Of a DNA stretch of 62,276 nucleotides, positions 2,298 through 53,533 are shown piece by piece. The stretch's first letter is position 1. Every line of letters begins with the position of its first letter. The position numbers and the translations under genes are program-made. Below the pieces are notes generated by a model. That model was given only the letters and a program-made list of their open reading frames with translations. It made no database searches and was not told where the DNA came from. This DNA comes from Euryarchaeota archaeon UBA602 (GTDB lineage: Archaea; Thermoplasmatota; Poseidoniia; Poseidoniales; Thalassarchaeaceae): assembly GCA_002498455.1 (NCBI GenBank), contig DAHO01000052.1:25527-87802 (forward strand), in the 5' to 3' direction.

Positions 2298-2299
2298 TT

Positions 2300-5528: not shown

Positions 5529-5599
5529 CGGCAATTTCGCTCCGACCAATTACCCCTCTCCGTTTACTCGTATCGTCGGCCTCAGTTAATCGTTTGTTC

Positions 5600-27789: not shown

Positions 27790-27901
27790 AAGTTTAGGTC
27801 AATGTCATTACTTGATAATGTTCGCTTTTGGCTTGGTAAATAACGCTTGTAAAAACAACGAGTTATAACCGTTCGAGAATCATTTCGTATGGGTGGTAGC
27901 C

Positions 27902-28837
27902 ATGGTGAGTTCAATGAAAATTGACAACCCAGAATACATCCTCGCCACGAGTGGCGAAAGTTTTCACTGGGCACGTCGTTTTCTGGGCAAGAAAATGGGA
28001 TATGATGCGGCTCGCCTTTACTCATTCTGCCGAGTACTCGATGACATGGCGGATGGTGACATCGAAAATGGTCCTGAACACCTCGTTCAAATTCAGTCAA
28101 AACTCAAACAAGGTCAGTGGGACAATCATCCTCTTCTCAACCAGTTTTCAGACATGGTCGACGAATACGACCTCTCAACCACCGTTGTTTCCTCTCTCGT
28201 GGAAGGACTCCTTGACGATCAGGCTGATGAAGTTCTAATCAAAGATGAAGAAGATTTGATTCAATACGCCTACAAGGTCGCTGGGACTGTAGGTTTGCTG
28301 ATGTGTAATGTACTCAATACCAACGAACCAAGAGCCAAGCCACATGCGATTGACCTTGGAATCGGAATGCAACTCACCAACATTGCTCGAGATGTTCTGG
28401 AAGATGCAAAAATGGGGCGCAGGTACCTTCCAGGTTCATGGGTCAACGATATGGCGCCTGAGGACATCATTCAAGCTTCAACCAACCCATACTCCGATGA
28501 AGCATTGCTGATTACTGAAGCAGTTCACCGTCTGCTTACATTGGCCGAAAAATATTATGCCAGCGGGCGACGAGGGTTGGCTTATCTTCCTGCACGAGCA
28601 CACTTCTCAATCGGAGTTTCTGCCAAGGTGTATAGGCAAATTGGGATTCAACTCCTGCGTTCAAAACATTCCTGGCATGGCCCTCGCCAAGTAACCTCAA
28701 AAGCAAGCAAAGTTTTCTGCACCCTGCGAGCGAGTGTAACCCTCTTCCGTCGATTCCCACACCCACGAAAGCAACACAATGCACACCTTCACACATCGCT
28801 TGGCCCGTACATGAATCAAGGTGGTACGTGGGGATGA
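27902..28837 (+). CDS. crtB: phytoene synthase
   Basis: It has squalene/phytoene synthase motifs: YSFCRVLDDMADGD (the first Asp-rich box) and GMQLTNIARDVLEDAKMGRRYLP. The ORF-track start 27893 is a GTG, and the ATG at 27902 is preferred. It is divergent from crtI. Confidence 0.85.
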   Translation: MVSSMKIDNPEYILATSGESFHWARRFLGKKMGYDAARLYSFCRVLDDMADGDIENGPEHLVQIQSKLKQGQWDNHPLLNQFSDMVDEYDLSTTVVSSLVEGLLDDQADEVLIKDEEDLIQYAYKVAGTVGLLMCNVLNTNEPRAKPHAIDLGIGMQLTNIARDVLEDAKMGRRYLPGSWVNDMAPEDIIQASTNPYSDEALLITEAVHRLLTLAEKYYASGRRGLAYLPARAHFSIGVSAKVYRQIGIQLLRSKHSWHGPRQVTSKASKVFCTLRASVTLFRRFPHPRKQHNAHLHTSLGPYMNQGGTWG

Positions 28838-29916
28838 AGACGCAAGTCCTCGGCAATGGCGTCGCGGCGATGATGCTCGCATCTAACGCAGACAAGTTAC
28901 CCAATCACAATATCTGTGTCGTTCATCCCGATAACGCCCCGATGGCAAGAGACCACATGCTCGGATTTTGGAACATGGACGGACTGGATCTTGCTGTCGA
29001 AAGCTCAAGGGCTTCATGGTCGACTTGGGCCATCATCACCAGCACGAACAAGAGCGTGCTGCACTCTGAAAAGCACGCCTACCACATCATGCACAAAGCC
29101 AACTACTTGCAAAATTGTCGAAACAAGGCAGAGGAGCATGGTGTTGATTTCATCGAACAGATCGATTTGTCGGCGGATGGTCGTTCACTAACGTTCGATT
29201 CACGTCCACCTAAGGCGAGTAAAAACGCTATGCTTCAACACTTTATTGGTCAAGAAGTCGTTATCGACAAGCCAGTGTTTGATATCTCGACTGCAATTCT
29301 CATGGATTTCCGTGTCGATCAAAGCGAAGGTATGCATTTCATCTATCTCCTGCCTTTTTCGCCGACTCAAGCCCTTGTTGAATCTACACTGTTCACTACC
29401 AAGGTTCTTGAACGAGCATTTTACACCGATGCCATTGAAAACTACCTTCTCGATCACCATGGGGCTTCAATCGTCGACATTGCCCACGAAGAGCAAGGAG
29501 TAATTCCGATGGGAGCGTTATCACCACACGATCCCAAAATCCCTGGTATTGGAGCCAATGCTGGTGCGATTCGACCAGCGAGTGGTTACACGTTCGTGTT
29601 CATACACCAACAGATTCAACGAGCCATCGAAGCGTCAAGGCAAGGAAAACCACTTCGCTTCAAACGACCACACCAGTCTGTTGATGTATGGATGGATGCT
29701 GTTCTTCTCACGGTCTTGAGAAATTGGCCTCAACAGGGACCAAAACTGTTCGCCCGTATGGCGGCATCACTGACTGGGGATGAATTCGTCCGGTTTATGA
29801 GTGGTCAAGCCAACTGGAGATTGCGGTTCAAGGTCATCATGGCAATGCCGAAAATTCCCTTCATCAAGGGTGCCTCTAAACATCTCTTCCAACGGCCAAA
29901 AAAGGTGGTTTCATGA
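28834..29916 (+). CDS. crtY: lycopene beta-cyclase (CrtY-type)
   Basis: It is about 360 aa with an N-terminal dinucleotide fold VLGNGVAAMMLA. The ATG at 28834 overlaps the crtB stop (ATGA), and its own stop overlaps the blh ATG. The position between crtB and blh is typical. Confidence 0.75.
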   Translation: MKTQVLGNGVAAMMLASNADKLPNHNICVVHPDNAPMARDHMLGFWNMDGLDLAVESSRASWSTWAIITSTNKSVLHSEKHAYHIMHKANYLQNCRNKAEEHGVDFIEQIDLSADGRSLTFDSRPPKASKNAMLQHFIGQEVVIDKPVFDISTAILMDFRVDQSEGMHFIYLLPFSPTQALVESTLFTTKVLERAFYTDAIENYLLDHHGASIVDIAHEEQGVIPMGALSPHDPKIPGIGANAGAIRPASGYTFVFIHQQIQRAIEASRQGKPLRFKRPHQSVDVWMDAVLLTVLRNWPQQGPKLFARMAASLTGDEFVRFMSGQANWRLRFKVIMAMPKIPFIKGASKHLFQRPKKVVS

Positions 29917-30743
29917 GCCTCTTGGGAGAACTGATGAGTGTTGATCTTCTCAACCTCATCGCTTTGATTGCTATTGTTTTCATCGGCTTGCCTCATGGTG
30001 CGATGGATGGGGCGTTGGCGATTCATCTTGGATGGATGAATCAACCCGTCAAAGCAGCAATGTTCCTACTCGGTTATGTTGGTCTAGCTGCGGTTGTGGT
30101 CGGCTTGTGGTTTCTCGCTCCAGTAATCGGATTCCTCGCGTTTCTTGCCATCAGTTTGTTTCACTTTGGAAGAGGCGACATTGTTCCCCATACAAAGGAA
30201 CACAAAAACGCAGAAGTTGTCATGCGAGGCGGTCTTGTTTTAGCGGGAATCAGTTTGTTTCATCGTACTGAAGTGGATGGAATTTTTGAGATTCTTGTTG
30301 GTAGTAACACCTCGCTTGTGTGGTCCTTCTTACAAGCCGTTGGAGCCCTTACCATCCTCTTGATTCCAATTGTAATCATCTCAAAACCACCATCTGAACG
30401 ACGCTCTTTACTGCTTGAAATCTCCGGTTTTCTCCTGTTGTTCGCATTCGCTCCACCTCTTCTGGGATTTGCGATTTACTTTTGTTGCATCCATTCTGTC
30501 CATCATTTTACACACATGGGGGAGATGCTCAAATCCACCATCCATCAATTCGAGATTACGCGTACGACCGTCCTCTTTTCGTTGATGACATGGGCCGTTG
30601 GTTTACTGATTCTAGCGTATCGATCGGCGTCGGTAGGGGTTGAACCTGCTCTAATTCAAGTGATTTTCATTGGTCTTGCAGCTCTTACCGTACCTCATAT
30701 GATCCTTGTTGATGGAATCGCAAAGCATGAACAGGCTTCCTAA
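29913..30743 (+). CDS. blh: Brp/Blh-family beta-carotene 15,15'-dioxygenase (retinal-forming)
   Basis: This 276-aa multi-TM protein has four His-containing motifs: GLPHGAMD, LFHFGRGD, CCIHSVHHF, TVPHM. Confidence 0.85.
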   Translation: MSLLGELMSVDLLNLIALIAIVFIGLPHGAMDGALAIHLGWMNQPVKAAMFLLGYVGLAAVVVGLWFLAPVIGFLAFLAISLFHFGRGDIVPHTKEHKNAEVVMRGGLVLAGISLFHRTEVDGIFEILVGSNTSLVWSFLQAVGALTILLIPIVIISKPPSERRSLLLEISGFLLLFAFAPPLLGFAIYFCCIHSVHHFTHMGEMLKSTIHQFEITRTTVLFSLMTWAVGLLILAYRSASVGVEPALIQVIFIGLAALTVPHMILVDGIAKHEQAS

Positions 30744-38692: not shown

Positions 38693-40456
38693 ATGTGCGG
38701 TATCGCTGGAATCTTCGGCCCCAATGGGGACGATTCAGCCTTGGCACAATCTATGGCCGCAATGCTGAATCATCGTGGTCCTGACGGAATACAATCGTGG
38801 TCTGAACCCTGTCAACACGGTGGCGTAGGGTTAGGTCACACACGATTGTCAATTGTTGACGTTGCCGGTTCGACTCAACCGCTACACTCGGATGATGGTT
38901 GTGTGTTGGTAATGAATGGAGAAATTTACAATCATCAACAAATCCGTAATGATGAACGAGGATTTTCTTTTCGAACTCAGGGAGATGGTGAATCCATTTT
39001 AGCAGCTTACGCTGCACGGCACGATGATGTTTCTTGGGTCCAACGCTTGGATGGAATATGGTCATTCGCACTTTGGGATTCTGCTCGACAAGTCCTCATC
39101 TTGTGTCGCGATCGTTTGGGTGTGAAGCCCTTGGTTCGGACCCAAAATACAGATGGCAATCTGTTGTTTGGTTCTGAAGTCAAGTCGTTGCGAGCTTATT
39201 CTGAATATCATTCTACCATCGATATGAATGCTCTTGTTGCACGTATTGCCTTCGAGTATCCATTGGATCAAACAACATTGTTTGAGGACGTCCACTCAGT
39301 GGAGCCGGGTTCCATCGAAACTTGGAAACTGACTGAAAATGGAGCACAATTGGAACAAAGGAATCGATGGATTGATTCTTATTTATCCAATCCTCAGAAA
39401 TCATGGAATCCGACAGAAGACGCCTCGATTTTACTCGAATCATTGACTCAATCGGTGGCTGATCGTTTAATGTCGGATGTTCCTTTGGGAATTGTCCTCA
39501 GTGGTGGTCTAGACTCGGCCATGGTGGCTGCCATTTCTCACGAAGCCTCACGACGAACGGGCTACCCTCTTCCCGCATGTTGGACGGTTGCAGAATCTGA
39601 AGATAATCCAGACTGGAAAGCGGCTGAAATCGTTTGTCAAGCACTCGACTTGGAGCACCATCAGCACGTACTTGAGGACAATAGCTTCAATCGTTCGCTG
39701 CCTAACTTGTCTTGGCATGGTGAAGATTTGGACATCACTGTACTGTTCTTCCAACCCCTCTTTTCGACGATGTCAAAATCGGTCAAAGTTGGATTGTGTG
39801 GACAGGGTGCGGATGAGTTGCATGCTGGATATCCTCGATACAAGGATCTAACCAGCCATCGACTTTCGATTGATTCAAGATTGGATGCATGTGAACATCC
39901 GTTCGCAAATCGATTGCGGGGAGGGAAAATTGTTGAAGATGGATGGTCTGGAAATCACAATCCGAGCACCGTTTTTTCAAGTTTACACTCGGCTCTGGAT
40001 TACGAAATGAATCATGGGCAATTGACAAATTTTCAGTTACGACTGGTCGATCGACATAGCATGGCTCACGGACTTGAAGTTCGGGTTCCTTTCCTCGGAC
40101 AGCCACATGTAGGTGCATCTTCCGACCTTCCACTGGATTGGAAGCTCTCACCCGATGTGGAAAAGTTGGCTTTACGAGCCGCCGCAGATTTGACTCGATT
40201 GCCAAAAGAAATTGTCAATCGTCCGAAATTGCCTGCGGGTCGTGCAACATCTCCGACCATGATCGAGAATTTATTGGAAGAGTTGCATGGGCATGCATTG
40301 CAATACGCCAATGATTTCCCACAATTGGCAGGGATGTTCAAAGATCAGCCTGAAATCTCACTTGGCCTGAGGTTGTTCCGTTCCTTGCATATCACCGATG
40401 GTGGAGTCGGTCGTGAACACAAAGATTTGATGACCCTATTGGAGGATGTTGAATGA
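38693..40456 (+). CDS. asnB: asparagine synthase (glutamine-hydrolysing)
   Basis: It has the Ntn-amidotransferase start MCGIAGIFG and the PP-loop LSGGLDSAMVAA. The start is moved to the Met preceding the catalytic Cys. Confidence 0.85.
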   Translation: MCGIAGIFGPNGDDSALAQSMAAMLNHRGPDGIQSWSEPCQHGGVGLGHTRLSIVDVAGSTQPLHSDDGCVLVMNGEIYNHQQIRNDERGFSFRTQGDGESILAAYAARHDDVSWVQRLDGIWSFALWDSARQVLILCRDRLGVKPLVRTQNTDGNLLFGSEVKSLRAYSEYHSTIDMNALVARIAFEYPLDQTTLFEDVHSVEPGSIETWKLTENGAQLEQRNRWIDSYLSNPQKSWNPTEDASILLESLTQSVADRLMSDVPLGIVLSGGLDSAMVAAISHEASRRTGYPLPACWTVAESEDNPDWKAAEIVCQALDLEHHQHVLEDNSFNRSLPNLSWHGEDLDITVLFFQPLFSTMSKSVKVGLCGQGADELHAGYPRYKDLTSHRLSIDSRLDACEHPFANRLRGGKIVEDGWSGNHNPSTVFSSLHSALDYEMNHGQLTNFQLRLVDRHSMAHGLEVRVPFLGQPHVGASSDLPLDWKLSPDVEKLALRAAADLTRLPKEIVNRPKLPAGRATSPTMIENLLEELHGHALQYANDFPQLAGMFKDQPEISLGLRLFRSLHITDGGVGREHKDLMTLLEDVE

Positions 40457-41586
40457 TGTCATATGTTGGGCCGGATATTCTGGCTGAACTTGAGGAAAAA
40501 ATCATCTCTAAGGAACAAGAGATTACGTCGTGGTTTGCTGAGAAGAGATCTAAACTAAAGATGCCAATCTATGGCTCTGTCGACATTCGTGATGCCAATT
40601 GGAAAGTTGCGGTCGTAGATGCGAACCAATTTCCTGCAGGTTTCAATAATTTGCAGGATGGCGATATTGGAGAACACTTCCGAAATGCCATCGGTGATTT
40701 ACGACATGTACACATCTGGCCTGAGGCTCATACTCGAAACCCTGCTTATGTTGAGCATTTGTCAGCTTTATCGGCAATCTTGGAGGAGGAAGGTTATGCT
40801 GTAACGGTGGGTGTCTTAGAAACTCACGAAGAGGTTCCAGTGAATATTGAGGGTGCGGTTCCCGACTTGATTCTACTCAACAATGATCTTACTGATGGCC
40901 CGCTCCCGGACCTCGGTGTCCCCGTTGTTCCATCTCCAAAAATGGGTTGGTACCAACGCCGTAAGTCGTCTCATTTCAAGGCGATTCAACCATTGGTAGA
41001 TGAGATTTCACAGTTGCTTGACATCGATCCTTGGCTACTCTCAACACAGTGGTTTGTCTCCGAGGGGAAGTGTTTGGACAAAGATACCTGCCGTACATTA
41101 TTGGCTGCTGAAGCGGATAATTTCTTGGCAGATTTACAATCAAAGTATGATCAATATGGGATTTCAGGTACCCCTACTTTGTTTGTGAAAAATGATGCTG
41201 GAACCTTTGGATTGGGGATTATCGAAATCACTTCTGGCGAAGAGTTACTAGCATTATCGAATCGAAAGATGCGAAAACTGACCTATGGAAAAGGGGGAAC
41301 AGAAGCTGAAGATTTCTTGCTGCAGGAAGGTGTCCCTAGCGCACTTTCATGGGATGGTATGGTTGTAGAACCCGTCGCATATTGTGCCAACGGCCGTGTT
41401 GGGGGTTGGTTTTATCGGGCAAATGCCAAGAAAGGCGAGATGGCCAATCTCAATAGTCCATCTTCTGTATTTATCCATCCACATGAAATTGAGAATCCTG
41501 CCATCGCATCTAGGCGTCAACACTGGCACATGTTGGTGGCAGAAATCGCCATGCTTGGAATCGCCATTGAGTCGGCTTCACTCTAA
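40453..41586 (+). CDS. glutamate--cysteine ligase-like protein (GshA, archaeal/proteobacterial small type)
   Basis: This 377-aa ORF has YGSVDIRDANWKVAVVDANQFPAGFNNL, which matches my recollection of the small GshA family N-terminal motif. Its ATG overlaps the asnB stop (ATGA). The family assignment needs an HMM check. Confidence 0.55.
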   Translation: MMSYVGPDILAELEEKIISKEQEITSWFAEKRSKLKMPIYGSVDIRDANWKVAVVDANQFPAGFNNLQDGDIGEHFRNAIGDLRHVHIWPEAHTRNPAYVEHLSALSAILEEEGYAVTVGVLETHEEVPVNIEGAVPDLILLNNDLTDGPLPDLGVPVVPSPKMGWYQRRKSSHFKAIQPLVDEISQLLDIDPWLLSTQWFVSEGKCLDKDTCRTLLAAEADNFLADLQSKYDQYGISGTPTLFVKNDAGTFGLGIIEITSGEELLALSNRKMRKLTYGKGGTEAEDFLLQEGVPSALSWDGMVVEPVAYCANGRVGGWFYRANAKKGEMANLNSPSSVFIHPHEIENPAIASRRQHWHMLVAEIAMLGIAIESASL

Positions 41587-41865
41587 TTCATCACTCACCA
41601 TCTCTGGTGGTGCATCCATGCCCATGATTTCGTAATTTGAGGGGAATAATGCAACGAGAACACCAGCGATACCAACAACAAGTGCCGACCAAAACATTTG
41701 GTAAGCAATTGCCATCTCTAGAGCGATTGCAACCAATAGTAACCCTCCTAGGTTGGAAATCCAAACCAATCGCTTGAATGTAGCCAAACCAACACCTTTG
41801 GTTGTCCCTGACATCGATTCTGGTCCGAACTCAGCTCCAAATCGAATGGGTTTGTCTTCAGCCAT
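41578..41865 (-). CDS. small membrane protein (2 TM), last gene of the Rieske/cyt b operon
   Basis: This 95-aa ORF has an ATG start and hydrophobic segments LGGLLLVAIALEMAIA and ALVVGIAGVLVALF. Confidence 0.5.
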   Translation of the reverse strand: MAEDKPIRFGAEFGPESMSGTTKGVGLATFKRLVWISNLGGLLLVAIALEMAIAYQMFWSALVVGIAGVLVALFPSNYEIMGMDAPPEMVSDELE

Positions 41866-41900
41866 ATTCTCTCCTCAATGAATCTACACATCAATACTTG

Positions 41901-42233
41901 TCAACGGTCAATCATGATGATTGCATCTGTTGGACAAGACAACACACAGAGCCGACATCCTGTACAAGGGTCTCGAAGCACCTTTGCCTTACGGTTGACA
42001 TCGATGTTCAAAATCGGACTGCTCAAAGGTGTATCATACAATTCGATGGCATCATCATCACACACCAAGGTACATTGATCACATCCAATGCAGAGATCTT
42101 CCTTGACGAAGGCCACCGTACCAGGTCCCCCTTTGACCTTTTCACGCGCTTCCGTGCGCATAGAATTCAGTGCAAGTCGGATACGTGCGGCTTCGCCACG
42201 CCGCCGGGCATCCAACTCAGCACGAGTCGTCAT
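41901..42233 (-). CDS. 2x[4Fe-4S] ferredoxin-domain protein
   Basis: Two CX2CX2CX3C(P/D) motifs are present: CIGCDQCTLVCDDDAI and CTGCRLCVLSCPTDAI. Confidence 0.8.
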   Translation of the reverse strand: MTTRAELDARRRGEAARIRLALNSMRTEAREKVKGGPGTVAFVKEDLCIGCDQCTLVCDDDAIELYDTPLSSPILNIDVNRKAKVLRDPCTGCRLCVLSCPTDAIIMIDR

Positions 42234-42268
42234 GTATATTGGGTGTACATGGTGCTTCTCAAATCTTC

Positions 42269-42526
42269 CTAAGCAAAGAATGTCAGCCAGAGCGGATGAA
42301 TCGAAATTACAAATGCCACACAGAATCCAGTCAGTGTTCCCTTGGCCATATTGGGTCGATCATATCCTAGGGCGACCAGGATCAGGAAGAAACCGATGAT
42401 CAGGTCACAGACCATCCCAATCCAAGCAGCTTTCCATGACAACATCAGGGCCACAGTCAGTGTAGCAACAGGGCCAATCATGAATCCAGAAATCCAATCT
42501 CGATCAAGCGAGACCAAGTATCTCAC
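42269..42526 (-). CDS. small membrane protein (3 TM)
   Basis: This 85-aa ORF has a GTG start overlapping the stop of the upstream 941-aa gene (GTGA). It is strongly hydrophobic. Confidence 0.5.
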   Translation of the reverse strand: MRYLVSLDRDWISGFMIGPVATLTVALMLSWKAAWIGMVCDLIIGFFLILVALGYDRPNMAKGTLTGFCVAFVISIHPLWLTFFA

Positions 42527-45339
42527 GCCTGTTTCTTTGCCTCAACTTGACGTGCCAAAAACGAGACGACATCTAGGATTTCGAAATCGTGCTTTGGATC
42601 TCCCTCAAATTTGAGGCACTCAAAGTGAGTGACACACTTTGGACAGGATGTAAGCATGATATCGGCGCCGGTTGCACGAACTTCATCGAAACGCTGTACT
42701 CGCAGGGCGCGACTGTCTTCATTGCAAGACATCATACTGGATACACCACAGCAGAGTGCATCTTCACCATGGTGTTCCATTTCCACCAAGTCGACGCCCT
42801 CCACAGAACAGACCAAGTTTCGAGGCTCATCGTAAATTTCCATTTGACGTCCCAAGCGGCATGGGTCATGATATGTCACAGTCACATCTTCCTCCGTCTT
42901 GAGATTCATATCGAACCCATTCTCAATCAGGAATTCAGTAGTGTGCATGACCTTGATTCCTTCCAATTCGTAATCCTTGGCAAAGGTCTTGAAACATTCA
43001 GCACAACTGGAAACCAATGTTTCAATGCCACTGGCCTGAATTTTCTTCTGGTTGTAAGCCTTCAACTTCTCAAAGACTTCATCCATACCTTGCCACTTTT
43101 GGTCGTGTCCACAGCATTTCAGGAAGTCACGCCCAAGATAGGAAACGTCCTTATCCATCTCTTCAAACAGAGTGAATGCAGATGTCGTCGCGTCTCCGAG
43201 GTTCATTTCGCCCTCATTGACGTGGCTGAAAATCATCTCTTGATCCAAATAATCAACACATCCAGGGTAATATCCGATGCTTGAATCGATGGGGTAGTCC
43301 TCGACTGGGATGAAATCAGCATCTCGCTCTTCCTCAGCTTCTGCAGCAAGAACTGCTTGCAATACTGTATGTGGGATGTTCGATGCAGGGGGTCCACCTA
43401 CAATCAGTGCTCTTCGCATATCGACATAAGAGTCGTAGTCAACCAATTGTGGGCAGGCATTTGTACAAGCAGAACAAGTGAGACAAGAGTACAGAGGCAC
43501 TCCATCATCTTCATTGTTCCAAGTATTGTAGATGATGTTGAGTTTATCACCGGCATTGAACAATCGCACGGGACATGCATCATCACAGAGGTCACAGCCG
43601 TAACACTTGTTCATCTCGTATTCGTATCCTCGTGCCATGCTGCGCATGAGCATGAAGACTACAGCGCCTACGCCCAAACAGGGGATAAACAGCGAATAGA
43701 TTAGTTTCGCATCCAAACTCTTGGGGTTCTTGTGATAGGTCGGGTTCTCGACCATATGGCTCGACAGTGATGCGATGTCTAGGCCAATGTCTGCTCGAGT
43801 GAGGTTGGTGGGGTCGTCACGATTCAAAGCTTGACCATTCTCCCCGATCAGCAACGGCTGGTAAGCAATGACATTGAAGCCAGCGAAGACGGTGTATGAT
43901 GAATTCACACCGGTCCACAAAGTGGAGAATGCAATGTTGTATTCTCCTGGTTCAAGTTTCATCACAGTATTTTCACATGCTCCATCAAAGAAGATCTCCC
44001 CTGATTCAGGCTGGCTGACTGACATGGTCCCAGATCCCTCGCCAATACCCCATTCACTTGAACGCTCATTGCAAGCGATATCGACAAACACAGCCTCTTT
44101 GCCGAAATCCTCGATGTTAAGCACCCATTCGGCTGAGATTGGAACTTCGCCAGTCGCATCATTGCCTGATTCGTTCCAATCTCCAGACACACCGTTACGA
44201 CCGATCTCAGTGTCGGTATGTCCATTGGCTCCACTGAAGTCAATCAGATGTTCTTGAGTTGGTTGGTAGATTCCCCAATTGAGGAAATGTCCTGCCGTGA
44301 CTAAACAGAAATCCGAACGACTGTAGGCATCTTCACCTTCAAATTTGGGATTCTCCCAAACAGGATTCGCCAAACTCTGCTCATAGGTCAAACAATCTTC
44401 TTCGATGAGTTCCCAATGGTGACCTTCATTGATGTTAACAAGCGTATCGACAGGTTGTCCGCGGAGTTCTTCCAAGGCAGATTCTTCATCCATGGCTCCA
44501 AGGCCGCCTTGGTCCCAGAATCCGTTGTTGTAAACGGGCCAAGTCACCGAACACAGAATCACTGTAACAATCAGAGTGGCAATTGAGATTTGTTTCCCTA
44601 ATTGTGGTGAAGTTCGTGCCCCAATGGATTTGACCATGAACCATCGGATGCCCATGTACAGGGCAATCCATATGAAAATCCCAGTCAAAATCCAAGGTAC
44701 AGCATTGAACAATTCAGCAATCCAGGGGGCTCTTGTTCCACAATTCAACCCAGCATGTGAATTCAGTTGACAGAAGTCTGTCCGATTTTTCCCATACAAC
44801 TCAAGGAAGATATTGATTGAGAATACACTGATGAACCAAACGTGTGCCAAATAAATGGCTCCCGCAGTCGCAAACCATGGATCTTCCACACCACGCTTTT
44901 CTCGGCCTGGTAGGAAGGGTGGTAGAGCGAGGATTCCGACGGGCAAACCGGTAATGGCGGCACCCCACCATGCAGCATTCCAAGCAATGACGGGCTGTCC
45001 AAAGAATTCACCAATCGGCCCAGCAGGAATATCGAATTGGGGTAAATATTCACCCCAGCGAAGGTATCCGTAACTGAATAGAACGTACCAGTCAGGGAAT
45101 ACGAATCCAGCCTGTGCATAAGGATCCGCAGCACCGTGTAGGGGGGGCGGAATCAGCCATGAATAAAATGCCAAAACGGCAATCATGGATGCGAAAATAA
45201 TCCCATCTCGAAGAACTTCATGCGGCCAAAATGCATGGCCTACGAACACACGTCGCCGCTCATTGTCAGCGGATTGGAGGCTGTCCTTCTCACGAACATA
45301 GGTGTCCGCGATCCGGCCGAGGTTCTCAATTAGTCCCAT
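42523..45339 (-). CDS. fusion protein: cytochrome b C-terminal half (subunit-IV-like), large extracytoplasmic insert, TM, then an HdrD/GlpC-like 2x[4Fe-4S] plus two CCG domains
   Basis: The N-terminal part carries FVFPDWYVLFSYGYLRW, the PEWY-type motif of cytochrome b C-terminal domains and b6f subunit IV. The C-terminal part has CYGCDLCDDACP and CLTCSACTNACP, followed by two CCG-type modules (PGC...CCGHD...SCAEC and DPC...CCGVS...SCPKC). The ATG at 45339 has GGAG 10 nt upstream and is preferred to the TTG at 45348. Confidence 0.8.
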   Translation of the reverse strand: MGLIENLGRIADTYVREKDSLQSADNERRRVFVGHAFWPHEVLRDGIIFASMIAVLAFYSWLIPPPLHGAADPYAQAGFVFPDWYVLFSYGYLRWGEYLPQFDIPAGPIGEFFGQPVIAWNAAWWGAAITGLPVGILALPPFLPGREKRGVEDPWFATAGAIYLAHVWFISVFSINIFLELYGKNRTDFCQLNSHAGLNCGTRAPWIAELFNAVPWILTGIFIWIALYMGIRWFMVKSIGARTSPQLGKQISIATLIVTVILCSVTWPVYNNGFWDQGGLGAMDEESALEELRGQPVDTLVNINEGHHWELIEEDCLTYEQSLANPVWENPKFEGEDAYSRSDFCLVTAGHFLNWGIYQPTQEHLIDFSGANGHTDTEIGRNGVSGDWNESGNDATGEVPISAEWVLNIEDFGKEAVFVDIACNERSSEWGIGEGSGTMSVSQPESGEIFFDGACENTVMKLEPGEYNIAFSTLWTGVNSSYTVFAGFNVIAYQPLLIGENGQALNRDDPTNLTRADIGLDIASLSSHMVENPTYHKNPKSLDAKLIYSLFIPCLGVGAVVFMLMRSMARGYEYEMNKCYGCDLCDDACPVRLFNAGDKLNIIYNTWNNEDDGVPLYSCLTCSACTNACPQLVDYDSYVDMRRALIVGGPPASNIPHTVLQAVLAAEAEEERDADFIPVEDYPIDSSIGYYPGCVDYLDQEMIFSHVNEGEMNLGDATTSAFTLFEEMDKDVSYLGRDFLKCCGHDQKWQGMDEVFEKLKAYNQKKIQASGIETLVSSCAECFKTFAKDYELEGIKVMHTTEFLIENGFDMNLKTEEDVTVTYHDPCRLGRQMEIYDEPRNLVCSVEGVDLVEMEHHGEDALCCGVSSMMSCNEDSRALRVQRFDEVRATGADIMLTSCPKCVTHFECLKFEGDPKHDFEILDVVSFLARQVEAKKQA

Positions 45340-45354
45340 TTTCTTCAACTCCGA

Positions 45355-46221
45355 TCAATGCGGCTCCGCGATTCCTTGAACCCACACAATGAACAGGTGG
45401 ATCAATATCAGTGATGTCACGATCACGGGCAATATAAACACATGCAGGAAATACATCCGAGTCACGGTTTGGTAAGTCAGGCTCGTCCCTCCAAACATTG
45501 CATTGGCCACCCATGGTCCGATGAGAGGAGTGCTGTTTGCCATGTTGATACCGATGGTTGCAGCGCCGAAGGCTAGACTGTCCCATGGCAACAAATATCC
45601 GGAGTAACCAAAGAAGATTACAAAAAACATGAGTGCGACCCCAATCAGCCAATTTAGTTCACGCGGATTCCGGTAAGCACCGGTGAAGTAGACTCTGCAC
45701 ATGTGCAAGAATACCGCGGCGACCATGAAATGTGTAGTCCAGTGGTGAATGGAACGGATGATGTATCCAAAGGGCAACTGGGTCATGATGAACTCCATGC
45801 TAGAGTAAGCTGGAGTGGGGTCGCCCTCTCCTCCAGGCACGTAATAGATGCCAAGGATTGTTCCCGTAATTACCAAGATGATGAAGGCGAGGAAGGAGAT
45901 GCCACCTAGACAATACAGGGGATACCAATACCAAATGATTCGTAATTTGTACTTCTCAGCATGAGTGAGGGGCATCTGTCGATGCATGCTGTGGTATGCA
46001 TCACGAGACATGGCCCAATAATCTTGGACACGGAATCGAGTATCAAGCCAAGAGAATGCCCAAAGGAATGTTTTCTCGACAAGTCCCAGTTTACCTGTGG
46101 ATTCTACTGCTCGAAGGATTTCTTTGCGAGGCATTTCCTCGTTCTCCTTACGCAATGTAAATGCCACGATGACCGTGATGACAGCAATAAAAAGTCCCAG
46201 TAACCAAACTTGTAACATCAT
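45355..46221 (-). CDS. cytochrome b, N-terminal (b6-like, haem-binding) half
   Basis: RSIHHWTTHFMVAAVFLHMCRVYFTGAYRNPRELNWLIGV...GYSGYLLPWD is the classical cytochrome b/b6 pattern with paired His ligands. The ORF is 288 aa. Confidence 0.85.
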   Translation of the reverse strand: MMLQVWLLGLFIAVITVIVAFTLRKENEEMPRKEILRAVESTGKLGLVEKTFLWAFSWLDTRFRVQDYWAMSRDAYHSMHRQMPLTHAEKYKLRIIWYWYPLYCLGGISFLAFIILVITGTILGIYYVPGGEGDPTPAYSSMEFIMTQLPFGYIIRSIHHWTTHFMVAAVFLHMCRVYFTGAYRNPRELNWLIGVALMFFVIFFGYSGYLLPWDSLAFGAATIGINMANSTPLIGPWVANAMFGGTSLTYQTVTRMYFLHVFILPVIVTSLILIHLFIVWVQGIAEPH

Positions 46222-46227
46222 TTCACC

Positions 46228-47100
46228 TCAATCGCAGAATGTGTACCACTCTTGGTACGTTGAAAGTCCCTTGATCACGTCATCTTCTACCGTGAATGGA
46301 ATCAAGGGCAGTCCTACAGGGGCGGGGCCACCCGTCAGGCGGACTCCGAAGTAGTCGAATGTCGACCCATTGCTTCGATTTCGATTTCGATTCTTCTCAA
46401 GCATTGTAGGGTCATAGCGAGATGAGTGGCAAATGCAGAACAATTTGTTGCCTCCTGCATCCACGCCACCCGGCAACCAAGTATCTGCAGTGAAGTCATT
46501 CGCAACCAACTGCCATCCGGGGATGCAACACAGATGTGGACATCGGCTAAACATCAATAGAATATTGTCATGGGGCTGGAGTGCTGTATCTGGACTTCCA
46601 TCCTCAAGGGTGACATCAAAAATTTCACGACCGTGTCCGATGAATGTTCCAGCTGCATCATAACCTTCGCCATATTGAATGCGAGGGATGCCTTCAGCGG
46701 GTGGTTTCGATTCATTTTCTTCATGAGGGATGTAGACGATATTCACGGGCATCCCACTCCATACACCTTGGGCACCAGACATTCCTGTCGAAGATTTGGC
46801 GGCTTCAGCTTCAAGGTGTGACTTTTGCATTTCTTGTTCATGGAGTGACCCATACCAGACGGTGTCTTCTTGCCCTTTTGGGACCCAATATTTGACACCC
46901 GTGTCTTCGCCACCGGTATCGGCTTGTCCCATTAGGAATGCTGCGAAGCCAACTGAACCTAGGCTAGCCATGGCGATGGCGCCGCCGGCTGCATTGAATG
47001 TGTACTTCATGAAGCGACGGCGATCGAGCATTGAACTATCATTCTCTGCTCCTGCATCCAGGGATCCTGGCGCGGGTCGGAGTCGAAATTGTCTAGCCAT
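46228..47100 (-). CDS. Rieske [2Fe-2S] protein with a twin-arginine signal
   Basis: It shows CPHLCC ... CICHSSRY (Rieske boxes I and II) and DRRRFMKY (a Tat motif). The ATG at 47100 is preferred to the TTG at 47124. Confidence 0.85.
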   Translation of the reverse strand: MARQFRLRPAPGSLDAGAENDSSMLDRRRFMKYTFNAAGGAIAMASLGSVGFAAFLMGQADTGGEDTGVKYWVPKGQEDTVWYGSLHEQEMQKSHLEAEAAKSSTGMSGAQGVWSGMPVNIVYIPHEENESKPPAEGIPRIQYGEGYDAAGTFIGHGREIFDVTLEDGSPDTALQPHDNILLMFSRCPHLCCIPGWQLVANDFTADTWLPGGVDAGGNKLFCICHSSRYDPTMLEKNRNRNRSNGSTFDYFGVRLTGGPAPVGLPLIPFTVEDDVIKGLSTYQEWYTFCD

Positions 47101-47102
47101 AT

Positions 47103-47552
47103 TCACACCTTGTAATCCTTCCAACTGTTGGAGTCCTTCGGAGTAATGTACTTGTTTCGTCGATGTTTAACAATCAGTGTATCTGGCATCACCCATTTCA
47201 GGTAAACGATGCCCATGATAATGATGGTCGTCAACATCATCGCAAGGAAGAAAGAGAGCATTTGTTGGTCCCAGTGGTTGAACAGCCCATAAGCCAACCC
47301 TCCTGCCCAATAGATGGTCCAAAATAGTCCCCACACGAAGACGATTGTTACCAACCAAGTCGACGCACTGGGGGATATACTTGAGCGAACGATGGTCCCT
47401 GGCTCAGGCATATTGAATACACCATGGTCCACTGCAGTGATGTACTCTTCCTCAGTTAGGTTGACATCTTCCAAAGCAAATCTAGCATCCTCGAGACTCA
47501 CTTCGCCAGATTTAACCTGACGCAGTAACCGCATGACAATGTCTTCACTCAT
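47103..47552 (-). CDS. membrane protein (soluble N-terminal helix plus 3 TM) in the Rieske/cyt b operon
   Basis: This 149-aa ORF has an ATG overlapping the upstream stop (ATGA). Hydrophobic segments are WLVTIVFVWGLFWTIYWAGGLAYGLF and LSFFLAMMLTTIIIMGIVYL. Confidence 0.55.
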   Translation of the reverse strand: MSEDIVMRLLRQVKSGEVSLEDARFALEDVNLTEEEYITAVDHGVFNMPEPGTIVRSSISPSASTWLVTIVFVWGLFWTIYWAGGLAYGLFNHWDQQMLSFFLAMMLTTIIIMGIVYLKWVMPDTLIVKHRRNKYITPKDSNSWKDYKV

Positions 47553-48364
47553 AGTTGGTCACCTCGTCGCAAGTGTTTCATCCGAAGACGGATTAGATTT
47601 GATCGCCCTTCATAGTGTCGACTGAATCCATATCGAAGGAAGAATCCACAAAACACAATCACGGCAACAACAGCACCGAATCCGAGTAGCCCCAACCAAT
47701 GGGCTCGGAATGGTGCCCCCATGTGGTGTAGGTCAACGTGTCCATGGTCTGCAGCCGGCGGGGCAACGTCTCCATTTCCTGCAAAGATGGTTCGCACCGT
47801 ACCGCTGTCGTCGCCTTCTCCCAACGAGAATGAAAGACGATTCCAAGCATCCCCTGTTGGAGCTCCATCTCCATTGACACTGTTGCCTGCCAACCAGAAT
47901 GTCACATCTCCACTGCCTGATTCGGGAGGAGTCCATGTGAACATCCATGCTCGATCACTCGGGTTGTTTCCAGCCTCAGTGTGTGTGAGTGTAAATTCAT
48001 CCTCTCCATTCTGCACCAAGTTTTCATATCCAGCCGCAGCGCCAAGTGCTCCGTCAGAGACGCGCATCGAGAATCCAGCCGATGCTGATCCGCCGATTTC
48101 AGGCCCTCCGATAATCTGGATTTTCATCGTATACACTTTCGTGGAATCATATTGGTAAGGGGCCTCAGCAACCATGACAGTGACGGAGTCATCTGGGGCA
48201 ATTTCATTACCAGAATGACACGTACATCCTGTCTTGGCAACATCTGTATCTCCTTCGGCTTCATTGCCATAAATTCCACCTGGGACGGCTTGAGATGAAC
48301 CGGCTACAAAAAGCAGCATCAGCAGACCGGTAAGGATGACGCGTGTCCGGAGGGATAGTGCCAA
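47549..48364 (-). CDS. exported, C-terminally anchored protein; first gene of the Rieske/cyt b operon
   Basis: This 271-aa ORF has a TTG start, a signal peptide LTGLLMLLFVAGSSQA, a beta-rich domain with GCTCHSG and NSVNGDGAPTGDAWN, and a C-terminal TM WLGLLGFGAVVAVIVFCGFFL. Confidence 0.6.
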   Translation of the reverse strand: MALSLRTRVILTGLLMLLFVAGSSQAVPGGIYGNEAEGDTDVAKTGCTCHSGNEIAPDDSVTVMVAEAPYQYDSTKVYTMKIQIIGGPEIGGSASAGFSMRVSDGALGAAAGYENLVQNGEDEFTLTHTEAGNNPSDRAWMFTWTPPESGSGDVTFWLAGNSVNGDGAPTGDAWNRLSFSLGEGDDSGTVRTIFAGNGDVAPPAADHGHVDLHHMGAPFRAHWLGLLGFGAVVAVIVFCGFFLRYGFSRHYEGRSNLIRLRMKHLRRGDQL

Positions 48365-51515: not shown

Positions 51516-52070
51516 GTGCCCAACCAACTTCGCCAATTCATGGGAGCCGGAGGTGATGCCCCCAGTGTTCCCATTTGGGACATGGCCGTTTTGATTGGTG
51601 CGACACTGTTCATTTCAACGGTCGTGATCTTGATTTGGACCCAACCAAATACATACAATCTCGATGGCAAAGAAGAAGTTCTTACGGTGCACACTGGGCT
51701 GTCACAAGCGGGATTGACGTTCGAATCAGCTTGCATTTCCAGTCCTGATTCAGATGCGAACACATCCTCATCGTGCCAAGATTTGTCAGTTTGGATTGTC
51801 TCACATGATGGGGCGGAAAGTTGGACTGGTGACTTGGACGATGCCGTCGAAATCGATTTGCTTGCAAACGGAGAATCTGAAAGCACTGTCAGTTTGAACG
51901 ATAAATTGGATTCGGGGGAATACCGATTGATTTTGGATGGCGAAGGTCAGTACACATTCGAAGTTACAGTTAACCGTACAATCCCGCATGAATTTGCACC
52001 TGCAATCCTCGGCTCAGTTCTTCTGATTTGGGGGATTTGGAGAAAGCAACAGGAAGAGGATGCAGCTTAA
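51516..52070 (+). CDS. hypothetical bitopic protein (N- and C-terminal TM, acidic exposed domain)
   Basis: This 184-aa ORF has a GTG start; later in-frame Met codons are also possible. The TMs are AVLIGATLFISTVVILIW and PAILGSVLLIWGIW. Confidence 0.5.
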   Translation: MPNQLRQFMGAGGDAPSVPIWDMAVLIGATLFISTVVILIWTQPNTYNLDGKEEVLTVHTGLSQAGLTFESACISSPDSDANTSSSCQDLSVWIVSHDGAESWTGDLDDAVEIDLLANGESESTVSLNDKLDSGEYRLILDGEGQYTFEVTVNRTIPHEFAPAILGSVLLIWGIWRKQQEEDAA

Positions 52071-53533
52071 TCCCATTTCCATCCCCAATCTTCGCTCATT
52101 TGGTGGACTTGATTGATGCCTAACAGACCTCCTGCAGCATCAATTCCGAATGATCTTGGACTGCCTTCAGATAATGTCAACCGCATGTTGGCAAATACAG
52201 CACTCAGAATGTCTTCCTTTTTGGGCGGCTTGATGAATGGATGAAATTCCAATATAGAGGCGACCGATGCATGCAAGACGGGAATCAATTTCTCAACATC
52301 TACTCCAAACAGAACATCCCAGCCGATTGAATCGCTGATTTCGGGGACTGAATTCCGATTCAATCCGATTCCTAAGGCAATCCGGTTTTCTTGGCCTTTG
52401 CTACGACCCTGGGCCAAAATTCCGCATAGTTTGCCGACATTTCCCGACCTTCGGATCCATATGTCGTTGGGCCATTTGACTCTGACTCCCTGCTTTTCAA
52501 GTTTTGAAGTATGGGTCCATGAGTGCGTAGGTAAACCCTGATTCATGAAGGTCGAAAGCGTATCGATTACAGCGAGAGATGCTGCATATTGAATAAACTC
52601 AGGGCCCCACTCTATAGATTTTCTATGAAGTGCCCAACTACCCATAAAATTGCGCTCGGAACCAACCCACATGCGATTTCTATATCCTCGTCCCGCGGTT
52701 TGATTGCGTGTCGAGACAAGATCGCCTTGATTGACCGTATTTTTTTCCAGAATGATTTCGTTGGTCGATTCGCACGAATCTAGGCGTACAATCTCACCCT
52801 GCTCAAACGGTCTCCAACAAGCAATCGCAGTTAGCATTTCGTCTCCAACGGCCAATTTCGAGATATTTCGTGTGGCCCACCCTGCTCTTCTCCAGGTTGT
52901 GGGGATTCGTGTCCCCACGTGATTGGAACTGTGCACGAGATAAATCACACCTCCGGGATTCAAAATATGGGGGTTTTGCGTGAGGGCATCCAATAAGGCA
53001 ATGTCACCTTGTTGATCAATCATTGCAGAATCTTCTAGCGGCCCTAATTTCTGTCCTGGTTCTGGGTCCAGGTACGGTAAATTCCAAGCAATTAAGTCCA
53101 CACTTTCCGAAGGCATCCACTGATCAATATCTCCAGGTCCTCCCTCAAAGACTGAAATTTCACAACCCAATTCGTTTGCATTTCCTTTGGTTGTGGCTAC
53201 TGCTAAGGGATTGATATCACATGCCTTAACCCTCCAACCACGAAGCGAGCAGGAGATTGAGATTGCACCACTGCCGCATCCAATTTCCAGCATCCCTTTT
53301 CCTTCCCCGGAACCGTGCTCGGCGAGTACCTGGTCGAGCAATGTCGAATCCTCTCTCGGAGGGTACACCGTAGGTGCAATCCTCAATGTAATGTCTTCAT
53401 GCCCACAGGGTTTCCAGGTAATGACGCGCCCACTACCCTTGGAATATTCAACCTCACGTTCGATCGACAACAGCCCCGCACTCCCTCGTATATTGGGGGT
53501 CGGTGGGAGTCGAAATTGAAGTATATTCTCCAA
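52067..53533 (-). CDS. fusion of an Mtq2/HemK-like SAM-dependent methyltransferase with biotin--protein ligase (BirA catalytic domain)
   Basis: The N-terminal about 250 aa show VYPPREDSTLL, LEIGCGSGAISISC (motif I) and DLIAWNLPY (an NPPY-type motif IV). The C-terminal about 240 aa show LDSCESTNE, TRNQTAGRGYRNRMW (GRGRxGRxW-type), KWPNDIWI and GKLCGILAQG. It has a TTG start. Confidence 0.8.
   Translation of the reverse strand: MENILQFRLPPTPNIRGSAGLLSIEREVEYSKGSGRVITWKPCGHEDITLRIAPTVYPPREDSTLLDQVLAEHGSGEGKGMLEIGCGSGAISISCSLRGWRVKACDINPLAVATTKGNANELGCEISVFEGGPGDIDQWMPSESVDLIAWNLPYLDPEPGQKLGPLEDSAMIDQQGDIALLDALTQNPHILNPGGVIYLVHSSNHVGTRIPTTWRRAGWATRNISKLAVGDEMLTAIACWRPFEQGEIVRLDSCESTNEIILEKNTVNQGDLVSTRNQTAGRGYRNRMWVGSERNFMGSWALHRKSIEWGPEFIQYAASLAVIDTLSTFMNQGLPTHSWTHTSKLEKQGVRVKWPNDIWIRRSGNVGKLCGILAQGRSKGQENRIALGIGLNRNSVPEISDSIGWDVLFGVDVEKLIPVLHASVASILEFHPFIKPPKKEDILSAVFANMRLTLSEGSPRSFGIDAAGGLLGINQVHQMSEDWGWKWD

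Follow-up and report, generated by a model that had tools for sequence, protein, structure and literature searches.

We analysed a 62,276-nt stretch of DNA from Euryarchaeota archaeon UBA602 (GCA_002498455.1, contig DAHO01000052.1, positions 25,527 to 87,802, forward strand), referred to below as the window. An operon of minus-strand genes at 41578-48364 is the Poseidoniales (Marine Group II, MGII) form of an archaeal b6f-like Rieske/cytochrome b quinol oxidoreductase ("complex III"). Its most unusual component is a protein of 941 amino acids (aa), g5 (42523-45348, minus strand), which combines in one chain a cytochrome b C-half, an exoplasmic insert, a sixth transmembrane (TM) helix, a 2x[4Fe-4S] domain and two CCG domains. 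A Rieske/cytochrome b core is here covalently joined to an Fe-S wire of the HdrD/EtfD type, a new pairing of two well-known modules that may link the haems of the complex to low-potential electron carriers of the cytoplasm.

Eight open reading frames (ORFs), g1 to g8, were confirmed in this interval, with spacings (from g1 to g8) of -4, -22, +6, +6, -4, +35, and +35 nt. A preliminary description of the window had reported eight tightly packed minus-strand genes; all eight ORFs exist, and the largest gap is +35 nt. Of these, g6 is not a conserved member of the operon (see below). The -22 nt overlap in front of the Rieske gene g3 shrinks to -4 nt (an ATGA overlap) with a start at ATG M9, as in the orthologues, and judging from the sequence the ATG at 47100 (M9) is probably the true start of g3. 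For g5, translation probably starts at M4, giving 938 aa. The operon is flanked upstream by a divergent TPR gene and an FtsZ-like gene and downstream by a convergent gshA gene, and thus constitutes a self-contained unit. gshA (40453-41586) encodes the glutamate-cysteine ligase GshA; the final 9 nt at its 3′ end also belong to g8. As a hint to a thiol substrate of the CCG module this gene was rejected: the neighbourhood is kept in the MGIIa locus L082, but not in the MGIIb locus L083, so that the adjacency is probably a matter of synteny and not of a shared function with the CCG module.

For comparison, one genome per GTDB species was scanned, which yielded 340 loci with C-half relatives; the best 80 of these 340 were analysed. 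They derive from Thermoplasmata, Marine Group III (MG-III), other Poseidoniia, uncultured and cultured Halobacteria, Hydrothermarchaeota, Bathyarchaeia, and others. Locus counts are based on phmmer and regular-expression classification of stop-to-stop ORFs, with some contigs cut at their ends, and the sequence covered comprised the 62-kb window and the 10-kb flanks of the relatives. The order g1, g2, Rieske, cytochrome b, subunit IV was conserved across the related loci.

The quinol-oxidising core is encoded by g3 and g4, accompanied by g2. The g3 product (46228-47124, minus strand) is a Rieske [2Fe-2S] protein with the Tat motif DRRRFMK and one TM anchor. Its cluster boxes read CPHLCC (aa 195-200) and CICHSSRY (aa 230-237), and the residues C195, H197, C200, C230, C232, and H233 were invariant among 12 orthologues. 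A single-sequence Pfam scan gave no Rieske match for g3; the protein matches NCBIfam TIGR01416 (5.2e-10), the orthologue at locus L081 is assigned to PF00355, and the family profile matches solved bc1 Rieske subunits (2.6e-11). The following gene, g4 (45355-46221, minus strand, 288 aa), encodes a b6-type cytochrome b N-half with an extra N-terminal TM helix, and matches both PF00033 (Cytochrome_B, 5.8e-42) and NF002990 (cytochrome b6, 7.9e-58). The bis-histidine haem ligands H159, H173, H260, and H275 show canonical spacing and are conserved in 79 out of 79 aligned homologues. Both a Tat-type Rieske protein, by its invariant ligand boxes, its twin-arginine motif and the profile match, and a b6-like cytochrome b N-half, by its family matches, are therefore present as the preliminary description had proposed. 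In addition, the sequence YCLGG in g4 (aa 103-107, with C104; nt 45901-45912) represents the CxGG motif, which carries covalently bound haem ci/cn in b6f-type complexes according to a phylogenomic study of cytochrome b (PMC5600118). By this motif g4 belongs to the b6f-type subclass, and attachment of haem ci is predicted. Upstream of g3, the 149-aa product of g2 (47103-47552, minus strand) is a two-TM, DUF7318-like membrane protein. Its match to PF24002 (2.1e-5) lies under the gathering threshold, and an orthologue in a closed Thermoplasmata genome is annotated with this family. Located immediately upstream of the Rieske gene in 55 of the 80 related loci, g2 is a conserved accessory subunit of the archaeal Rieske/cytochrome b cluster.

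The N-terminal domain of g5 (aa 30-272; 44533-45261, minus strand) corresponds to the cytochrome b C-half, or subunit IV, with five TM helices and an invariant Qo motif PDWY (aa 85-88; nt 45085-45096). Taken as a single sequence, g5 yielded no match to Pfam Cytochrom_B_C (PF00032), and the comparison with the Protein Data Bank (PDB) by phmmer returned b6f subunit IV only weakly, with an E-value of about 0.1 and an alignment over the PEWY region. An exhaustive search with the first 290 residues, in contrast, recovered relatives that, at 30-45% identity, score above the Cytochrom_B_C threshold (48.7 bits at most), and a profile that includes the g5 of the window matches cytochrome b (1.3e-12) and b6f subunit IV (4.6e-8) in the PDB. 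Since relatives pass the threshold and the profile matches, this domain is a genuine cytochrome b C-half; the preliminary assignment thus holds at the level of the family profile rather than of the single sequence.

Also in agreement with the preliminary description, which had noted a large hydrophilic insert and one more TM helix, the five helices are followed by an acidic segment of about 276 aa (aa 273-548; 43705-44532, minus strand), predicted to be exoplasmic and largely a beta-sandwich, and by a sixth TM helix (aa 549-567; 43648-43704, minus strand) that returns the chain to the cytoplasm. The insert contains four conserved cysteines (C319, C348, and those at about C426 and about C458) and is modelled confidently by AlphaFold2 (AF2), with a block of predicted local distance difference test (pLDDT) values of 80-93 and strands from residue 386 to 495; Foldseek returned only weak matches of GOLD-like fold. 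It is variable in sequence and was seen only in the Poseidoniales (MGII) forms, being absent from relatives of 543-790 aa. Hydropathy and positive-inside counts agree on six TM helices with the N-terminus inside, short K/R-rich inner loops and an acidic outer loop. The Fe-S domain starts about 10 residues past the sixth helix. As the number of TM helices is even and the module begins right after the last of them, the Fe-S/CCG module is placed in the cytoplasm. The linker behind the sixth helix contains the conserved stretch GYEYEMNKCYGC, and the motif G-Y-E-Y-x-L-N-x-C-Y-x-C within it is shared by MGII and distant relatives.

The cytoplasmic part of g5 begins with a 2x[4Fe-4S] domain (aa 578-636; 43441-43617, minus strand), in which two CX2CX2CX3CP motifs (aa 582-593 and 622-633; C582/585/588/592-P and C622/625/628/632-P) precede the CCG domains, the arrangement known from HdrD. 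Pfam recognises the dicluster at aa 578-634 (Fer4_9, Fer4_8, and Fer4_10, 2e-7 to 4e-6). Two complete CCG domains follow (aa 692-909; 42622-43275, minus strand), with the cysteines C697...C745C746...C782xxC785 and C830...C866C867...C902xxC905, and match PF02754 in two stretches (1.1e-21). The preliminary description had recognised these two cluster motifs and two CCG modules from the sequence alone, and the family searches agree. From their cysteine patterns, the CCG domains are predicted binding sites for two non-cubane Fe-S clusters. In an alignment of 37 sequences reaching down to 33% identity, 17 of the 18 cluster cysteines were invariant (all eight cubane ligands and nine of the ten CCG ligands), and the remaining one, C746, was present in 90% or more.

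By sequence, EtfD of M. smegmatis (9ojn, 6.4e-22) is the solved protein that comes closest to the module; residues 617-908 of g5 align to it. With the AF2 model of g5 as query, Foldseek retrieved EtfD (4.9e-13), LutA (TM-score 0.75), and HdrB (TM-score 0.60-0.64). Among NCBIfam models, the best match of the CCG region was TfrB (3.1e-30), far under its cut-off; the models TfrB, LdhH, GlpC, DsrK and others, including all Hdr-related equivalogs, all scored far below their cut-offs. The g5 module belongs to the CCG superfamily but is none of these named enzymes. The solved and characterised relatives differ in how they use their clusters. EtfD uses its two cubane and two CCG clusters as a wire that conducts electrons from a cytoplasmic flavoprotein to a membrane haem b and on to menaquinone (PMC13083937). 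For Syntrophus EMO, a preprint states that the non-cubane clusters transfer electrons and do not catalyse, and it describes the CCG clusters of HdrDE and TfrB as catalytic in disulfide/thiol chemistry (bioRxiv 10.64898/2026.08.18.745454). Precedents therefore exist for both directions of electron flow.

Downstream of g5, the operon contains a dedicated ferredoxin, as had been proposed in the preliminary description. g7 (41901-42233, minus strand) encodes a 110-aa, "RnfB-like" 2x[4Fe-4S] ferredoxin, extended at its N-terminus by a basic stretch of about 40 aa. It matches Fer4_21 (2.3e-13), its counterparts in the MGIIa and MGIIb loci are 63-69% identical, and a partner with a Fer4 domain recurs in related loci. 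The best NCBIfam match is rnfB (TIGR01944, 2.9e-12), which covers the Fer4 domain only and reaches 46.5 bits against a cut-off of 68.7. No Rnf genes were found within the window, and MGII have been described as having an orphan RnfB without RnfACDEG (PMC6336850). g7 is accordingly not the RnfB of an Rnf complex, but a dedicated soluble or peripheral Fe-S subunit. The last gene, g8 (41578-41865, minus strand), encodes a 95-aa membrane protein with two TM helices, which is conserved in MGII (55-64% identity by tblastn, at the same position in L082 and L083) and has a single match in an MG-III locus (L062). Between g5 and g7 lies g6 (42269-42526, minus strand), a hydrophobic ORF of 85 aa that is not conserved in the cluster. 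It has no homologue among the 80 related loci and is absent from the MGIIa locus L082; in the MGIIb locus L083 a homologue (10788-11021; 36% identity, E = 6e-9) lies on the opposite strand relative to the operon. On these grounds g6 was rejected as an operon member; this small gene, placed between the genes for g5 and the ferredoxin, is mobile or invertible.

On the high-potential side, no CxxCH protein (cytochrome c1, cytochrome f or dihaem cytochrome c) was found in the operon. Archaeal Rieske/cytochrome b complexes commonly lack a c-type cytochrome and use copper proteins. The first gene, g1 (47549-48364, minus strand), encodes a 271-aa protein whose exoplasmic, reeler-like beta-sandwich lies between an N-terminal signal/TM segment and a C-terminal TM anchor. 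Described previously only as exported and anchored, it can now be named a choice-of-anchor V/reeler-like protein: it matches NCBIfam NF041895 (choice-of-anchor V domain, 7.6e-27), and its AF2 model (pLDDT 74.7) resembles the reeler domain of F-spondin (Foldseek E = 9e-5, TM-score 0.62). C47-x-C49-H50 and H128 as well as the C-terminal anchor are conserved in an alignment of 36 sequences. At the g1 position of the chromosome of Halospeciosus flavus, a cultured haloarchaeon (L036, 3691-4731), a Tat-exported copper protein of the plastocyanin family is encoded, which matches g1 by phmmer and aligns through the C-terminal anchor; this locus also has a DUF7315 gene after subunit IV. Because a cupredoxin occupies the same gene position in L036, we infer for g1 the role of an anchored protein that accepts electrons from the Rieske subunit, as a positional analogue of cytochrome c1/f.

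The fusion recurs well beyond the source genome. Full-length homologues of g5 with 69-99% identity fall into over 100 protein clusters, which derive from independent marine assemblies and both MGII families; some clusters were seen on up to 80 contigs, and the full-length fusion recurs on hundreds of independent Poseidoniales contigs. Other archaea, among them a Thermoplasmata archaeon with a closed genome of 2.28 Mb, have shorter fusions (543-790 aa) that lack the insert but share the junction motif. With the ORF intact and the fusion recurring in independent assemblies, an assembly chimera or a decaying pseudogene is refuted with near certainty. The conservation survey also answers the concern raised in the preliminary description that the two halves might always be separate genes in relatives: they are not, though the CCG unit is a separate gene in 37 of the 80 loci.

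Across the 80 loci, the pairing occurs in three evolutionary states: no Fe-S domain; Fe-S domain fused with the CCG unit separate; and everything fused. A plain subunit IV was encoded at 25 loci (plus 2 cut by the contig end). At 37 loci, subunit IV carried the 2x[4Fe-4S] domain and a separate, adjacent CCG gene of about 300 aa was present; at a further 4 (plus 1 cut), the CCG gene was not detected. Full fusions of subunit IV, 2x[4Fe-4S] and CCG were found at 11 loci, so that the dicluster is fused to subunit IV in 53 of the 80. Where enough downstream sequence was available, a ferredoxin-domain gene followed in 35 of 39 Fe-S-bearing loci, compared with none of 22 Fe-S-less ones. The partner is a plain ferredoxin in MGII, a four-cluster polyferredoxin or a flavodoxin plus ferredoxin in MG-III, and Fer4 plus MvhD/FlpD in Thermoplasmata, while two loci (L003 and L007) have HdrA-like flavoproteins. 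These patterns show that the Fe-S extension, the CCG unit and the ferredoxin-domain partner were gained and lost together across Thermoplasmatota. At one locus of an uncultured archaeon (L001, 8629-13484), the fused subunit IV-Fe-S-CCG gene is followed by genes for HdrC-like, HdrB-like, 1010-aa HdrA-like, and MvhD proteins, which is a full soluble Hdr set attached to a Rieske/cytochrome b cluster.

The Fe-S extension also tends to coincide with the predicted haem ci site. The cysteine of the CxGG motif was found in none of 24 Fe-S-less loci (which have TLGS, ALGS and similar sequences), but in about 30 of 53 Fe-S-bearing loci; a Fisher test gave p of about 1e-6, a value that uses approximate counts, ignores kinship and is descriptive only. 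In the relatives P0156, P0166, and P0168, the Fe-S-less subunit IV ends in Y-E-x-x-L-N-x-x-Y-[YF]-[KR]-V-R, which is similar to the GYEYxLNxCYxC linker of the fused forms. As these C-termini resemble the pre-cluster linker, Fe-S-less forms of subunit IV may derive from fused ancestors by truncation.

Further variation was noted among the relatives. Exoplasmic beta-sandwich domains, which in MGII are added to g5 as the insert of about 276 aa, are elsewhere added to other subunits. In the closed Thermoplasmata genome of locus L081 (7343-9973), a Big_5 domain is found on the cytochrome b N-half. P0168 has a Laminin_G_3 domain within subunit IV, and seven loci (L003-L006, L010, L017, and L019) have cytochrome b ORFs of 600-1090 aa. 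Fused variants of 1334-1349 aa, about 400 aa longer than g5, are present in marine assemblies (P0243 and P0263). Typical archaeal clusters were also found in metagenome-assembled genomes labelled Proteobacteria, Nitrosomonadaceae, and Chloroflexota (L018, L055, and L071), two of them (L055 and L071) with the MG-III-type arrangement; these are probably mis-binned archaeal contigs.

Compared with known systems, the core of the MGII complex is like cytochrome b6f and the Firmicute-type bc complexes, with which it shares a Tat-type Rieske protein, a four-helix cytochrome b with identical histidine spacing and YCLGG, a separate C-half with a P(E/D)WY Qo motif, and the gene order Rieske, cytochrome b, subunit IV. 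Unlike these, it has the reeler-like, anchored g1 instead of a c-type cytochrome (f, c1 or dihaem c), and the subunit IV part lies within a protein of six TM helices with the exoplasmic insert of about 276 aa and cytoplasmic 2x[4Fe-4S] and 2xCCG domains; the extra ferredoxin and DUF7318-like subunits of the MGII operon are likewise absent there. Equivalents of PetG/L/M/N were not identified in the operon.

The module itself invites comparison with HdrDE, DsrMK, HmeCD, and TmcBC, from which the MGII complex differs in that the membrane partner is a Rieske/cytochrome b core and not a cytochrome b of the NarI/HdrE type. It further differs from HdrDE and its relatives in the covalent fusion to subunit IV, in an obligatory ferredoxin-type partner, and in an MGII host without methanogenic or sulfate-reducing context. 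With a bc-type C-half, a non-methanogenic host and scores under the cut-offs of the Hdr equivalogs, g5 was not assigned as a heterodisulfide reductase of the HdrDE type. EtfD of Mycobacterium and EMO of Syntrophus are similar in that one polypeptide unites a TM domain (haem-b-binding in EtfD/EMO) with 2x[4Fe-4S] and 2xCCG. The TM domain of g5 is, however, unrelated to that of EtfD, its module is part of a quinol-oxidising complex with Qo and Qi sites, and genes for an electron-transferring flavoprotein (ETF) are not nearby; moreover, the first CCG site of EtfD is degenerate (with a linear 3Fe-4S cluster), whereas both sites of g5 are complete. As only the Fe-S/CCG part aligns and no etfAB was found in the window or in the inspected loci, g5 was not classified as an ETF:menaquinone oxidoreductase of the EtfD/EMO kind.

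Rieske/cytochrome b complexes of the anammox bacterium Kuenenia reportedly contain FAD/NAD-binding and multihaem subunits, and we know of no report of CCG domains in them. They are like the MGII complex in having a core with extra cytoplasmic redox subunits, there of the NAD(P)-oxidoreductase type, and a link between quinol oxidation and low-potential redox chemistry of the cytoplasm was proposed for them (PMC12954380). In contrast to the MGII complex, they are bacterial, and their extra modules are different.

MGII were previously found to lack a canonical bc1 complex although they possess a cytochrome b and a Rieske protein, and an "MGII specific complex III" and the orphan RnfB were noted (Tully 2019; PMC6336850); the "missing" canonical complex III has been on record for years without explanation (PMC6336850). 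For Ca. Angelarchaeales, one sentence mentions that hdrD-like and rnfB-like genes adjoin the complex III cluster and suggests entry of ferredoxin electrons (Diamond et al. 2022; PMC9038741). These genes very probably belong to the same module family as g5 and g7; the Angelarchaeales cluster has a plastocyanin-like protein in the acceptor position, where MGII has the reeler-like g1. The account is limited to gene proximity and does not describe the fusion, the link to haem ci, or the distribution in MGII, MG-III, and others (PMC9038741). In the full-text literature searched, which leaves subscription journals mostly outside, neither the covalent fusion nor its three evolutionary states nor the haem ci link was found described, and no biochemistry of the complex turned up. 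On targeted reading, a paper on haloarchaeal Rieske/cytochrome b complexes (PMC3509893), the cytochrome b phylogenomics (PMC5600118), and the survey of CCG proteins in the EMO preprint (bioRxiv 10.64898/2026.08.18.745454) do not mention such a fusion, and transcriptome and ecology papers on MGII (PMC9723583, PMC6864105, and PMC6461757) contain nothing on the genes of the operon. The earlier statement that no characterised complex has this architecture thus holds in the literature searched, but the gene association as such had already been noted for Angelarchaeales. The present analysis shows the make-up of the MGII-specific complex III, to which the orphan annotations "RnfB" and "heterodisulfide reductase D" belong.

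Archaeal heterotrophs produce reduced ferredoxin by 2-oxoacid:ferredoxin oxidoreductases and need a route for its electrons into the respiratory chain. From the analysis as a whole, we see about an even chance that the Fe-S chain of g5 is a wire on the N-side of the membrane joining haems bH/ci to low-potential carriers of the cytoplasm, with inward flow as the most likely direction. Reduced ferredoxin (in relatives, a flavodoxin-ferredoxin, an MvhD-ferredoxin or an HdrA-like flavoprotein) would donate electrons to g7, from where they would pass through the CCG clusters and then the cubane clusters to haem bH/ci. The haems would reduce quinone at the Qi site, by which complex III would double as a ferredoxin:quinone oxidoreductase. 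The resulting quinol would be reoxidised at Qo, with the Rieske branch leading via the reeler-like g1 to a terminal oxidase. Entry of ferredoxin electrons via complex III was independently proposed for Angelarchaeales (PMC9038741). Further points in favour of the wire are the topology of g5, its conserved cluster cysteines, the match to EtfD, the carrier-type partners of the Fe-S-bearing loci and the occurrence of the CxGG cysteine at such loci only.

Several observations weigh against such an inward wire. The direction of electron flow is purely a matter of what we infer. In the AF2 model of g5 (37-sequence alignment), the membrane part reached pLDDT values of 40-70 only, with a predicted TM-score (pTM) of 0.39, and Foldseek with this model, poor in its membrane part, gave no cytochrome b match. 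The MG-III group keeps the module with SLGG in place of CLGG, and the correlation with haem ci may go back to no more than one or two events in evolution. An NAD-type 2-oxoacid dehydrogenase complex encoded in the window (see below) bears on the size of the ferredoxin pool in MGII. Finally, both five-cysteine CCG motifs are complete, like those of catalytic HdrB/HdrD, and the CCG region scores best against TfrB, in which the CCG unit is catalytic for thiols.

The last two features favour the opposite direction, which the preliminary description had preferred and which resembles HdrDE and DsrMK: the low-potential electron from Qo would travel via haems bL and bH into the Fe-S chain and on to a cytoplasmic acceptor, either a disulfide at the CCG domains or ferredoxin, replacing or supplementing the Qi site, and the high-potential electron would go to Rieske and g1. 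HdrDE sets a precedent with its path from cytochrome b over cubane and CCG clusters to a disulfide; the anammox Rieske/cytochrome b complexes are proposed to generate NAD(P)H (PMC12954380); and HdrA-like or HdrBC-MvhD genes follow the module in L001, L003, and L007. Taken to its full extent, this would be a quinol-driven bifurcating machine that sends one Qo electron to oxygen via Rieske and g1 and reduces a disulfide or the dedicated ferredoxin with the other. We consider outward flow possible but unlikely, and the bifurcating machine a little more doubtful still. No candidate disulfide is known, and MGII are non-methanogenic aerobic heterotrophs (PMC6336850), in which such a substrate is not apparent; transfer from the P-side to the N-side towards a low-potential acceptor opposes the membrane potential, and by established bioenergetics an electron that has passed the b haems is unlikely to be low enough in potential for ferredoxin. 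A terminal catalytic CCG site as in HdrDE would have no need of the carrier-type partners with which the module strictly co-occurs, and the neighbouring gene gshA is not consistently syntenic (present in L082, absent in L083). For these reasons, and because EtfD and EMO set a precedent, inward flow is judged the likelier. What stands of the preliminary interpretation is the architecture, i.e. Rieske protein, split b6-type cytochrome b, HdrD-like cytoplasmic fusion, and ferredoxin; the partner genes and the comparison with EtfD/EMO fit electron input at least as well as the output then suggested.

Input could also come from another donor. If the complex were a built-in ETF:quinone oxidoreductase in the strict EtfD/EMO sense, the CCG domains would dock ETF, electrons of beta-oxidation would reach the b haems and quinone, and g7 would be auxiliary. 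The donors would be acyl-CoA and amino-acid dehydrogenases, and EtfD is indeed the top PDB match by sequence and fold; ETF docks onto the non-cubane clusters in EMO, and MGII, which have genes for acyl-CoA dehydrogenases, break down fatty acids and proteins (PMC6336850). We nevertheless regard this as improbable: EtfD is among the very few solved full-length proteins with the module, so that its top rank is partly a sampling effect, its membrane domain is not homologous to that of g5, etfAB genes were found neither in the window nor beside the module in any locus inspected, and the co-occurring partners are of the ferredoxin, flavodoxin, MvhD or HdrA types. Less probable still is that the module lies off the main electron path and senses or regulates redox state, aids assembly or forms a structural appendage of complex III. 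Nothing speaks for this directly, though the plain subunit IV at 25 of the 80 loci shows that the core can work without the module. The preservation of all 18 cluster-ligand cysteines in distant relatives (only C746 is not invariant, being present in 90% or more), the co-inheritance with dedicated electron-carrier partners, and the tight, conserved linker to the last TM helix point instead to electron transfer.

If the inward wire is true, the complex would be a natural, hard-wired ferredoxin:quinone reductase within a b6f-type complex, and would explain by which route the ferredoxin electrons of aerobic archaea get back into the respiratory chain. A ferredoxin:quinone reductase activity of chloroplast b6f in cyclic electron flow has long been debated, as stated in a preprint (bioRxiv 10.1101/2020.08.22.262592). 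If electrons flow outward, the complex would represent a new type of quinol-based bifurcating enzyme, and with bifurcation the most abundant archaea of the surface ocean would have a complex III without a conventional Q cycle.

The remainder of the window contains several other gene groups. A 2-oxoacid dehydrogenase complex (E1 alpha, E1 beta, and lipoyl E2) is encoded together with lipoyl synthase at 1023-5549, and a lipoate/biotin ligase-methyltransferase fusion at 52067-53533; the complex and the lipoate genes thus indicate an NAD-linked 2-oxoacid route, which bears on ferredoxin output. A 3003-aa ORF at 9708-18719 combines a transglutaminase core, macroglobulin MG2/MG4 domains, Ig-like domains, and TSP3 repeats. 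On either side of it lie ORFs of 998 aa (no Pfam match; 6610-9606) and 1146 aa (beta-propeller SBBP repeats; 22709-26149); all three ORFs presumably encode giant surface proteins. Archaeal RNA polymerase genes are present too; together with the retinal biosynthesis genes and the Poseidoniales annotation of the nearest homologues, they assign the window to an MGII archaeon. Finally, a complete retinal pathway cluster is located at 26281-30743, comprising genes for (i) a CrtI-like desaturase of the amine-oxidase family (minus strand); (ii) phytoene synthase; (iii) lycopene cyclase; and (iv) beta-carotene 15,15′-dioxygenase. This cluster fits the lifestyle of a proteorhodopsin photoheterotroph.

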